Shown here: positions 38,518 to 41,127 of the stretch, in pieces
Layout of the letters: every line of letters begins with the position of its first letter
How positions within the stretch are numbered: the first letter of the stretch is position 1
NCBI GenBank assembly: GCA_946611605.1
Contig: CAMODU010000002.1
Coordinates: 1 to 52,158 of the forward strand
Length of the DNA: 52,158 nucleotides
Direction: 5' to 3'
Source: an uncultured bacterium
Lineage (GTDB): Bacteria; Bacillota_I; Bacilli_A; RF39; UBA660
The notes under the pieces: generated by a model
The model's database searches: none
Told to the model about the DNA's origin: nothing
What the model saw: only the letters and a program-made list of their open reading frames with translations
Program-made: the position numbers and the translations under genes

Positions 38518-41127
38518 ATGAATAAAAGAACAAAAATATATCTAATAATATCAGTACTATTATTAACAGTTGGATTTGCATCTGTTACTACAAATCTAAT
38601 AGTTAATGCTAATTCTAATATAAGTGCTAACTTAAATGATTTTAATGTTTATTTTAGTGAAGCTAGAGCAACAAATGGAGAAGCTAGCATAAATGACGAG
38701 AAGACTGTTATCACATATAATACTAATACATTAAAAAGTATTAATAATACATCTATTTTAAATTATGTTGTTACAAACGATTCTTTTCAATATGATGTTA
38801 ATGTAAGAGTATCAGTGGATTACAACGAAATATTAAATGATTATATAGAAATAACTCAAGAAGGGTTTGTTAATGATAATGATGTTATAGTAAATGCTCA
38901 AGAAGAAGTACCAGGTAAAATAACTATTAAACTAATAAAACCAGTTTTAGAAGATATGTCATTTGATTTAACAGTTACATTAGATGTTGAAGCGGCAGAA
39001 AGAACTGAAATAGCTGAACAACAAATGAAAGCTGGATTATATGATAAAAATGATAATCTTTTATATAGATGGAGTGAATTAGAGGATAAAGGATATGTAT
39101 ATAAACAATATAGCTATTTAAAGAATCCTACTAAATCTGATGATTTAAAAGATATAGATGGAAAATTATTTATGGAGCCTAGTTTGTATTATATAACAGA
39201 TTCTGCTTTGACCAATTTTCCTAACATCACTGAATTAACACTTCCAAATAATATAAATATAGAGTCTAGTTTCTTAGAAAATAATAAAAAAATAGAATAT
39301 AACGAATATGAAGGTGGTTATTATATAGGAACATATGATAATCCATATTATTTATTTGTAAAATTAGTAGATCCAGAAACAAAACAAATACAATTACATG
39401 ATGATACTAAATATATTTATCCTAGTGCATTTAAGAATAATACTACTATAGAGAGTGTAGTTTTGCCAGAAGGATTAAAGAAATTACCTATTAATGCATT
39501 TGAAGGTGATATATCATTACAAAGTATAAATATTCCATCAACTGTAAAGATTATTCCAAGTTCATCATTTAAGAATTGTAAGTCTTTGAGTAATGTAGAA
39601 ATATCAGATGGTGTAGAAAGTATAATGTACTCGGCTTTTCAAAATGACACATCATTAACAAATATTAGTATTCCTGATTCTGTTAAAACTCTTGGAACAG
39701 CTATATTTGATGGGTGTACTGAATTAACTGATGTTAGATTATCAGATACAATAAAAGGAATAACAGCAAATATGTTTAGAGGCTGTAAAAAACTGGCAAA
39801 TGTTAATTATCCAAGCAGTCTTGAAACAATAGGATCTTTTGCCTTTCAAGATTGTGATTCTTTGGAAGAAGTAATATTACCTGAAGGTGTAAAAACTGTT
39901 GCTGGTGAAGCTTATGCTGGTTGTGATAAATTGAAAAATGTATATATACCAAATACCGTAACGAGTTTTGGTGAAAACGTTTTTTTTCAAGTAACGAGTC
40001 TAGAAAATGTTGTTTTATCAGATAATGTAGATGTTTATAGTGAGCCTTTTAAGAATAATAAGAATTTAAACACTATTTCTCAAGGAAATATTAAATATTT
40101 ATCTTCAAATAATAATCCATATTTTTATGTTGAAGATGCAATATCTAAAGATGCAACTTCTATAAGTATTAACGAAAACGCTGTAATAATTGGTAGAGAT
40201 TCATTAAAGGATTTAAAAAAACTAACTAGTGCTTATATTCCAGATTCGGTTGTATATCTAGGTGATAGAGCTTTTTCTGGTGATATATCATTAGCAAGTA
40301 TTAGATTATCAAACAATCTTAAAGAAATCGGTGATAATTCACTTTTCTATTGTAATTCATTAAAAGAAATAAATATACCAGCTTCAACAACTAAGATATC
40401 AAATGCATTCTTTGTAACAGAATATGACAAAGGATTATTGGAAAAGATAACGGTCGATAGTGATAACCCAGTATATACAGATATGAACAGTAATATATTA
40501 GCTGAAAAAGAATCTAATTACTTATTGCGTGGTAGCAACAATTCAGTGGTACCTGAAGGCGTAAAAACAATTGGTTCAAATGCTTTTATAGGATTAAAAA
40601 ACTTAACTAATGTAGTTCTTCCAAATTCTGTTGAATATATTGAAAGTACTGCTTTTAGTGGGAATAAAAATCTTACTCATGTTGAATTATCTGATGGAGT
40701 TAAGTATATTGGATCTAGTGTTATATCTTTTGTAATGTTTGATACGAGTTCTAATGTTGTCTTAACAACATATAAAGGTGGTAAGTATTTACAAAAAGGG
40801 GATAATCCTTATTATGCTTTAGTCGGTGCAGAAATAGATAATAGTAATACAAATTTAAGTAATTTAGGTGGAGAAGCTAGCGTTACAGTGCATAAAGATA
40901 CTAAATTAATTGCATCTACAATAATTGGATTTATGGATAAATTAAATGCGTTCGAATTTGAAGATTCTACAGGGTGGTCTTTAGTAACAGTAAATTATTC
41001 ATTAGGTGGCAATAATATAACAACTAAATCAATTAATCAAATTGATCCAAATAATATAAATACTCCGGATAAGGCATTAAACTACTATAAAAAGATAGGT
41101 TCAAATCAATCATTGATACATTCATAA
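38518..41127 (+). CDS. Surface protein (869 aa): shared N-terminal module plus BspA/TpLRR-type leucine-rich repeats
   Basis: ORF track gives 38509, a GTG inside AGGTGAT; ATG 38518 is preferred. The N-terminus MNKRTKIYLIISVLLLTVGFA|SVTTNLIVN...VITYNTN...ILNYVVTNDSFQYD...FDLTVTLDVEAAER is homologous to the 2896 protein. From about residue 300 there are repeats of about 23 aa of the form IxIPxxVxxIxxxAFxxCxxLxx (for example SINIPSTVKIIPSSSFKNCKSLSNV and NISIPDSVKTLGTAIFDGCTELTDV). Confidence 0.85.
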   Translation: MNKRTKIYLIISVLLLTVGFASVTTNLIVNANSNISANLNDFNVYFSEARATNGEASINDEKTVITYNTNTLKSINNTSILNYVVTNDSFQYDVNVRVSVDYNEILNDYIEITQEGFVNDNDVIVNAQEEVPGKITIKLIKPVLEDMSFDLTVTLDVEAAERTEIAEQQMKAGLYDKNDNLLYRWSELEDKGYVYKQYSYLKNPTKSDDLKDIDGKLFMEPSLYYITDSALTNFPNITELTLPNNINIESSFLENNKKIEYNEYEGGYYIGTYDNPYYLFVKLVDPETKQIQLHDDTKYIYPSAFKNNTTIESVVLPEGLKKLPINAFEGDISLQSINIPSTVKIIPSSSFKNCKSLSNVEISDGVESIMYSAFQNDTSLTNISIPDSVKTLGTAIFDGCTELTDVRLSDTIKGITANMFRGCKKLANVNYPSSLETIGSFAFQDCDSLEEVILPEGVKTVAGEAYAGCDKLKNVYIPNTVTSFGENVFFQVTSLENVVLSDNVDVYSEPFKNNKNLNTISQGNIKYLSSNNNPYFYVEDAISKDATSISINENAVIIGRDSLKDLKKLTSAYIPDSVVYLGDRAFSGDISLASIRLSNNLKEIGDNSLFYCNSLKEINIPASTTKISNAFFVTEYDKGLLEKITVDSDNPVYTDMNSNILAEKESNYLLRGSNNSVVPEGVKTIGSNAFIGLKNLTNVVLPNSVEYIESTAFSGNKNLTHVELSDGVKYIGSSVISFVMFDTSSNVVLTTYKGGKYLQKGDNPYYALVGAEIDNSNTNLSNLGGEASVTVHKDTKLIASTIIGFMDKLNAFEFEDSTGWSLVTVNYSLGGNNITTKSINQIDPNNINTPDKALNYYKKIGSNQSLIHS

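Follow-up and report, generated by a model that had tools for sequence, protein, structure and literature searches.

All of the published work on DUF5305 proteins that was found concerns donor-strand filaments. The AbpX loci, which belong to the TasA superfamily, encode a TIGR02228 signal peptidase I that has ten transmembrane (TM) helices in AbpX systems, and a DUF5305 accessory in which an extracellular beta-sandwich is joined to two TM helices and a domain in the cytoplasm; further genes of these loci code for minor subunits and for tip proteins that vary in structure and bear extra domains, and the bacterial members include Bacillota (bioRxiv 10.64898/2026.01.04.697558). In the Tat-fimbriae (Tafi) of haloarchaea, processing of TafA requires the peptidase TafD, and TafG is a DUF5305 protein (PMC11821415; PMC12337348). 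The sipW-bsaA-bsaB-bsaC operon of C. perfringens makes donor-strand fibres, which in the model for BsaA are kept on the membrane by the newest, uncleaved subunit (PMC11580942), and the operon also encodes BsaC, to which a vWA domain has been added (PMC9674648; PMC11580942). The subject of this report is a module of about 165 residues with which three proteins begin in a 52,158-nucleotide stretch of DNA from an uncultured bacterium of the RF39 lineage of Bacilli (contig CAMODU010000002.1 of assembly GCA_946611605.1), the whole of which is called the window below. One of these proteins, encoded from position 38518, joins the module to a leucine-rich-repeat (LRR) passenger; another, encoded from position 30059, joins it to a beta-helix-like passenger; the third, encoded from position 2896, is the module standing alone. 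The proposal made here, with a confidence only a little above even, is that a system built around a dedicated signal peptidase uses the module as the common domain for exporting, processing and assembling its proteins, the assembly in question being that of a donor-strand fibre.

A shared N-terminal module

In the LRR protein, the module takes up residues 1-162 (MNKRT...VEAAER), which correspond exactly to positions 38518..39003. The initial annotation had noted that this region shares sequence blocks with the other two proteins, and BLASTP bears this out, with 39% identity over 174 residues to the protein at 30059 (E 1e-33) and 34% identity to the whole 196-residue protein at 2896 (E 2e-13). 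A hidden Markov model (HMM) of the family, built like the column conservation given below on 152 family sequences, matches exactly three proteins of the window (E 2e-62, 2e-62 and 1e-45), and the next best match has an E-value of 0.24.

A basic n-region opens the signal peptide. Its hydrophobic core lies at residues 7-18 by hydropathy and at residues 9-18 in the column conservation (10-12 residues) and is followed by G19, F20 and A21, which are kept in 150, 150 and 149 of the 152 sequences respectively; both the signal peptide and this G-F-A motif are as well conserved in passenger-bearing as in stand-alone members. Because a canonical signal peptidase I site has small residues at -3 and -1, close behind a short hydrophobic core, cleavage is predicted after A21. 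The most conserved stretch of the module is residues 16-49, so that the N-terminus is more than a plain signal-anchor. The conserved columns from the predicted cleavage site onwards are A/S22, V23, T/S24, T25, L27, I/V28, I29, N30, G31, I35, N38, D41, F42, V44, F46 and A49. Over residues 22-40 the consensus reads A-V-T-T-x-L-I-I-N-G-x-x-x-I-G-x-N, and V23, T25, L27, N30, G31 and N38 are strongly conserved. Further on, N87 is invariant and S89, Y92, D93 and A94 are nearly so; the core closes with A159-x-E161-R162, and conservation collapses after R162. Cysteines occur at residues 100 and 153, in separate core beta-strands, in 75 and 74 of the 152 sequences, and among the window proteins only in that at 2896; they could form a disulfide particular to one subfamily.

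An AlphaFold2 (AF2) model of the monomer, made from an alignment of 26 sequences, has a mean predicted local distance difference test score (pLDDT) of 87.4, with values above 93 over residues 41-165, and shows a helix at residues 3-22 and a nine-strand beta-sandwich. Residues 23-40 are conserved yet unstructured (pLDDT 52-58), and a conserved segment that finds no place in the predicted monomer suggests an intermolecular role for these residues.

The same data can be read as those of a membrane tether, in which the signal-anchor would remain uncleaved and the beta-sandwich would serve as a membrane-proximal stalk for the passenger, with no polymerisation. The helix modelled by AF2 fits such a tether, as do the single hydrophobic stretch at residues 7-29, which is long enough to span the membrane, the absence of any other anchor (see below), and a fold that weakly resembles those of N-terminally anchored beta-barrel envelope proteins. 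This reading is nevertheless thought unlikely, since it explains neither the near-invariant small residues G19 (-3) and A21 (-1) after a core of 10-12 residues nor the strong conservation of residues 22-49, and leaves without a reason the position of the module-only paralogue, which always opens a cassette that includes a dedicated peptidase.

The signal peptidase and DUF5305 cassette

Directly downstream of the stand-alone module gene lie the genes for a signal peptidase and a DUF5305-family protein (Table 1). The peptidase passes TIGR02228, the model of archaeal/ER/SipW-type signal peptidases I (74.9 bits against a cut-off of 51.85), matches the model of Bacillus SipW at E 1e-13, and has a Peptidase_S26 match. 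At least seven strong hydrophobic segments precede its catalytic domain, which contains the motifs GSGSM, VHRI and KGDAN; these presumably hold the Ser, His and Asp residues of SipW-type enzymes. The N-terminal 250 residues (3552..4300), with 7-9 TM segments, have no Pfam match, and the peptidase may correspond to the "ten-TM" signal peptidase I of AbpX loci; its length (about 377-393 residues for the whole enzyme) and arrangement are kept in all of the related loci.

The third protein of the cassette is itself just under the Pfam threshold for DUF5305 (PF17231). Most of its homologues (32-82% identity) carry that domain, and one is named "DUF5305 family protein". By hydropathy it has a TM segment at residues 24-42, an ectodomain of about 200 residues, a second TM segment at residues 242-260 and a cytoplasmic domain, a two-TM topology that fits the published description of DUF5305.

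Of the 22 genome loci that were compared, 12 (L007, L008, L013-L022) have a module-only gene, a peptidase gene of about 380 codons and a DUF5305 gene in this order, which recurs in five more distant loci (L023-L027) that were reached through DUF5305 homologues; the order is thus found in all 17 of the related loci that have the peptidase/DUF5305 pair. On the strength of gene context, this pair assigns the module to a kind of system that is already known, in which filaments or matrix proteins depend on a dedicated signal peptidase.

In the window, the LRR and beta-helix genes lie amid housekeeping genes, 35 and 26 kb from the cassette. That separation is what would be expected if the module were an ordinary signal peptide followed by a lineage-specific Ig-like spacer that has spread by paralogue expansion, the link to the peptidase then concerning the stand-alone copy only. 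Such an account is considered very improbable. The signal peptide and the G-F-A motif are no less conserved where a passenger is present, and in six other loci (L007, L008, L013, L015, L018, L020) extra module genes, most of them passenger-bearing, adjoin the cassette. The passenger-bearing paralogues are therefore tied to the same machinery, despite the gap of 26 and 35 kb in the window.

A gene for UDP-galactopyranose mutase (glf) closely precedes the cassette, but only in the window and its close relative L016. It bears on another explanation, according to which the module is a tag for export and processing and nothing further: after cleavage, the monomer would dock non-covalently on a partner at the cell surface, such as the DUF5305 ectodomain or a wall polysaccharide, or would be released. 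The linkage to the peptidase and DUF5305 genes agrees with this explanation, and so do the position of glf and the lack of structural likeness to known donor-strand pilins that is described below. The linkage to glf is, however, limited to these two closely related loci, and every characterised system that has the peptidase/DUF5305 pair makes filaments. In addition, the conservation of residues 22-40, which are unstructured in the monomer, argues for a structural partner. A module that acts as a tag alone is accordingly given a low probability, and assembly by way of the module is preferred.

The module family and its passengers

A word-index search with the module alone recovered one close relative only, and the size of the family became apparent with an exhaustive HMM search of 1.84 billion representatives, which returned 1,410 clusters at E<=1e-3, with 653 of them at E<=1e-10. 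The description of architecture is based on the 150 best hits, where the module is always N-terminal, from residue 1 to about residue 170, in proteins 164-1957 residues long. Module-only proteins (<=215 residues) make up 26 of the 150, and none of the 150 repeats the module or carries an additional strand of its own.

A Pfam scan of 96 longer members showed the passengers to be mutually unrelated. They include Flg_new (16 proteins), the ALK/LTK glycine-rich domain (11), LRR_5 (7), CarboxypepD_reg (5), DUF6273 (4) and DUF285 (3), with single cases of laminin-G-like, CAP, F5/8 type C and other domains. The ALK/LTK glycine-rich domain (PF12810), whose best match among these 11 proteins has an E-value of 6.5e-68, is best known from animal receptor kinases.

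The genomic matches all come from metagenome-assembled genomes (MAGs) of uncultured bacteria of low GC content (26-38%) that bear the labels Erysipelotrichales, Bacilli or Firmicutes; a single MAG often contains many copies. In the MAG CANQFG01, at least nine module genes are spread over four contigs, on one of which (L005, 5881..13596) five stand in tandem, three of them module-only and two with passengers, with no peptidase within 10 kb. Cassette and module genes are also found in six loci (L009, L011, L014, L017-L019) from MAGs labelled "uncultured Muribaculaceae bacterium", on contigs of 26-31% GC. Judged by the GC content that is general among Bacteroidota, these contigs look mis-binned or mislabelled rather than like true occurrences in that phylum.

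Conventional surface anchors

Neither of the two large window proteins (869 and 1366 residues) has an LPXTG motif, and by hydropathy the sole hydrophobic segment of each is N-terminal; scans with Pfam and NCBIfam found no SLH, LysM, CWB or GW wall-binding domain in either. The earlier observation that both lack an LPXTG-type signal, a C-terminal TM segment and a wall-binding domain is thereby confirmed. The 150 best family members likewise show no C-terminal LPXTG-type motif and no second hydrophobic segment, wall-binding domains not having been searched for in that set. The initial annotation had gone on to suggest that one module with two unrelated passengers looks like a modular display system. 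Its modularity stands, and the lack of an LPXTG-type motif and of a second hydrophobic segment proves to be general in the best hits; the arrangement is not without precedent, since it fits the known kind of system with a SipW-type peptidase and DUF5305, which that annotation had overlooked. Retention at the surface, or assembly there, would then take place through the module.

Other routes of attachment or export were considered and rejected: that of a sortase substrate, as there is no LPXTG; that of a lipoprotein, as there is no Cys; and that of a type IV pilin-like (class III) signal, as G-F-A comes after the hydrophobic core and not before it, there is no Glu at +5, and N_methyl does not match.

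Comparison with the TasA fold

No recurrent family emerged for the module when the three window proteins, together with 26 module sequences, were scanned against Pfam and NCBIfam at E-values up to 10; a match of one of the 26 to DUF7408 (E 7.7e-4, under the cut-off) was treated as noise. None of the three is matched by Peptidase_M73. On both sequence and structure, the module was rejected as a member of the TasA fold or of Peptidase_M73. In Foldseek searches of the Protein Data Bank (PDB), the AF2 model resembles generic Ig-like sandwiches, namely adaptin ears, MG domains of C3c, VP37 and VP28 of white spot syndrome virus (WSSV), and FimI and FimF; in BFVD the same model finds only WSSV envelope-protein and phage matches, with poor TM-scores. 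An earlier AF2 model from three sequences (pLDDT 64.5) was too weak to be used, its Foldseek matches being likewise generic, with TasA (8aur_A) at rank 29 and E 0.05.

A remote connection comes from the more distant loci. The cassette subunits of two of these (L024:8197-8769 and L026:8117-8761) belong to a sister family of 663 proteins, 190-220 residues long and without Pfam or NCBIfam annotation, in which nearly all of the members listed are module-only and whose consensus is MEKERKIK...VAFAALSQTLTINGTA...LTKPGDSVTYTFDVVNxGTIDA. The sister family is homologous to the module (hhalign 97.9%, E 6e-13) and has a TasA-like L-x-K-P-G-D...N-x-G motif; it matches TasA over 24 columns with 60% probability, and one of its members reaches Peptidase_M73 at E 0.004, under the cut-off. 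By way of these alignments, the sister family hints at a remote kinship of the module with TasA.

Proposed assembly

In the mechanism that is proposed here, all three window proteins would be exported by Sec, and the signal peptide would hold each of them briefly in the membrane. The cassette peptidase, aided by the DUF5305 protein, would cleave after G-F-A, and the N-terminal strand so freed (A/S-V-T-T-x-L-I-I-N-G) would enter the beta-sandwich of a neighbouring subunit, in the manner of donor-strand complementation in TasA, BsaA, AbpX and Tafi. The fibre would grow from the membrane, its base being held through the newest, uncleaved subunit. The 196-residue protein encoded at 2896 would be the core subunit, and the LRR and beta-helix proteins would be subunits joined through their modules, with their adhesin passengers displayed from free C-termini.

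It is important to emphasize that a number of results weigh against this mechanism. Foldseek, with the model of pLDDT 87.4, found nothing in the PDB at E<1e-3 and no TasA-superfamily chain among the top 50. The module profile aligns with TasA at an hhalign probability of only 3.7% (the TasA query sequence was verified as identical to 8aur_A), and the Peptidase_M73, DUF1102 and SipW-substrate NCBIfam models match none of the 26 members. Searches of PDB sequences with the profiles A1, A2 and A4 returned nothing except one chance match at E 0.34. In the AF2 model, residues 23-40 do not return to the core to complement it as a strand of the same chain, and the hydrophobic stretch at residues 7-29 would suffice for a signal-anchor that is never cleaved. 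The two large genes stand well away from the cassette, and cleavage and polymerisation are themselves inferred.

The findings as a whole suggest that varied adhesins may be hung on TasA-like surface fibres in these bacteria. A more far-reaching version is put forward tentatively, as possible and with less confidence than the role of the module itself: that uncultured low-GC gut Bacilli (Erysipelotrichales-like) would possess a new family of fibre subunits, in which a pilin-like donor-strand module is combined with interchangeable passengers, in mixed fibres that are assembled by the peptidase and DUF5305 and that would give Gram-positive bacteria a means of surface display independent of sortase and of wall anchors, the fold being unrelated, or very remotely related, to that of TasA. 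The passengers that enter into such mixed fibres, adhesins or enzymes, would be the LRR, beta-helix, Flg_new, ALK-type glycine-rich, DUF285 and lectin-like domains; if this is true, many adhesins would be presented at once.

The LRR protein

The open reading frame of the LRR protein extends over 38509..41127, with a GTG at 38509 and an ATG at 38518. The ATG is preferred as the real start, because the sequence AGGTGA (Table 1) is suitably placed as a ribosome-binding site and because homologues align from the corresponding M1. An identical protein occurs in public assemblies. In this AT-rich DNA, a scan of the surroundings of the gene for promoters and terminators told nothing of use: 21 promoter-like sites were counted where 26.9 would be expected, and no terminator was detected.

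The passenger passes the Pfam model of BspA-type repeats, LRR_5, at E 5e-84 (279 bits against a cut-off of 27.7, in four stretches). A regular-expression search located LRR units exactly 23 residues apart at residues 311, 334, 357, 380 and 403, with the next at 449, and further units of the same spacing at residues 569, 592 and 615, then one at 696. The passenger had been described as about 700 residues of LRR units of roughly 23 residues; the length of the unit is upheld, and the units themselves were detected in several blocks between residues 311 and about 720, with NPYY-type inserts between the blocks. Residues 163 to about 225 and the final 90 or so are not LRR.

Known LRR_5 adhesins are usually held by an LPXTG motif, a lipobox, a C-terminal secretion domain or a TM segment. 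The passenger is like the BspA/TpLRR-type proteins (LRR_5; HupY/LrrG) in its clear LRR_5 array of 23-residue units, whereas the protein as a whole differs from them in lacking LPXTG, lipobox, C-terminal secretion domain and C-terminal TM segment, and its score against the NCBIfam HupY/LrrG model lies far under the cut-off (123.7 against 1250 bits, E 7e-36).

Features of the window

The features discussed above are collected in Table 1. The same contig encodes a second, unrelated surface-display device, in the form of an adjacent cohesin-dockerin gene pair: the protein encoded at 12975..14750 is secreted and carries SH3_3 and Dockerin_1 (E 7e-14), and that at 14754..16382 combines Cohesin (E 6e-7) and cadherin-like domains with a C-terminal TM segment and a tail rich in Lys and Glu. 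The gene at 118..1626, which lies upstream of both glf and the cassette, encodes a 502-residue protein that has a signal peptide, an N-terminal half rich in Cys and a repetitive tail rich in Asn; its TM block shows a faint TrbL/ICE-like similarity (E 4e-4, far under the cut-off), and a homologue is found only in the close relative L016.

Table 1. Positions in the 52,158-nucleotide window of the module genes, the cassette and the parts of the LRR protein
Feature	Position	Strand	Basis
Stand-alone module gene, 196 aa; first gene of the three-gene cassette; candidate core subunit	2896..3486	+	Homology, cassette position
Polytopic signal peptidase I, archaeal/SipW type, 377 aa	3552..4685	+	TIGR02228, Peptidase_S26, hydropathy
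DUF5305-family protein, 406 aa; presumed peptidase accessory (role from published work)	4708..5928	+	Homologues with PF17231
Module protein with passenger, 1366 aa: module, Flg_new repeat, long Gly/Thr/Asn-rich beta-helix-like repeats	30059..34159	+	Homology, Pfam
Ribosome-binding site AGGTGA, 5 nt upstream of ATG 38518	38507..38512	+	Read from the sequence
Gene of the LRR protein, 869 aa: N-terminal module and BspA-type LRR passenger	38518..41127 (including stop)	+	LRR_5 match, 23-aa spacing
Residues 1-21: predicted Sec-type signal peptide (Lys/Arg n-region, hydrophobic core, c-region G19-F20-A21)	38518..38580	+	Hydropathy, conservation
Residues 22-40: alternating hydrophobics; candidate donor strand or peptidase P' recognition segment	38581..38637	+	Conservation, AF2
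Residues 41-162: predicted beta-sandwich core, ending in conserved A-x-E-R	38638..39003	+	AF2, conservation
Residues 163-869: passenger with LRR blocks, NPYY-type inserts and a C-terminal stretch of about 90 aa without match	39004..41124	+	LRR_5

Significance and relation to known systems

If the proposed assembly is true, it would explain how large adhesins that have no LPXTG, TM segment or wall-binding domain are retained by the cell: a dedicated peptidase would build them into a fibre as subunits. The recently defined TasA-like/SipW/DUF5305 systems would then reach into an abundant group of uncultured gut Bacilli and gain a subunit family that current models miss, and an assembly module would be seen to act as a general carrier for varied passengers. 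For annotation, a usable rule would be an N-terminal '...L-L-x-[IV]-G-F-A-[AS]-V-[TS]-T-x-L-[IV]-[IV]-N-G' together with a TIGR02228/DUF5305 cassette; it would cover hundreds of "hypothetical" surface proteins of gut metagenomes, and the module might find use as a scaffold for surface display.

The tapA-sipW-tasA operon of B. subtilis and the sipW-bsaA-bsaB-bsaC operon of C. perfringens resemble the cassette in having a dedicated SipW-type peptidase beside the subunit genes. They differ in that SipW has a simple topology and that the operons are without DUF5305; moreover, TasA belongs to Peptidase_M73, which the module does not match.

The AbpX loci likewise have the gene for a small secreted subunit beside those for a many-TM TIGR02228 peptidase and a DUF5305 accessory. 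No similarity of sequence or fold was detected between the module and AbpX-related structures, and the predicted mature N-terminus of the module, A/S-V-T-T, is without the aromatic-2/acidic-4 signature, a comparison that was made at the level of the signature. In further contrast to AbpX, the module system has no linked SLH or LPXTG anchor protein, and its family is greatly expanded, with many copies per genome, and carries large adhesin passengers.

Tafi differs in being archaeal, in its Tat export and in the four TM helices of TafD, and no sequence similarity to the module was detected. It shares with the module system the pairing of a signal peptidase with DUF5305, the occurrence of several pilin-like paralogues (TafA and TafE in Tafi), a two-domain architecture (that of the tip, TafC), and an arrangement in which one TM helix is followed by a beta-sandwich (that of the anchor, TafF). 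Systems marked by DUF5305 together with a dedicated SipW-type peptidase are already known as a kind; what is new with respect to the literature consulted is a subunit family that existing models do not recognise, its great expansion in uncultured gut Bacilli, and its systematic use as an N-terminal carrier for many unrelated passengers of adhesin type.

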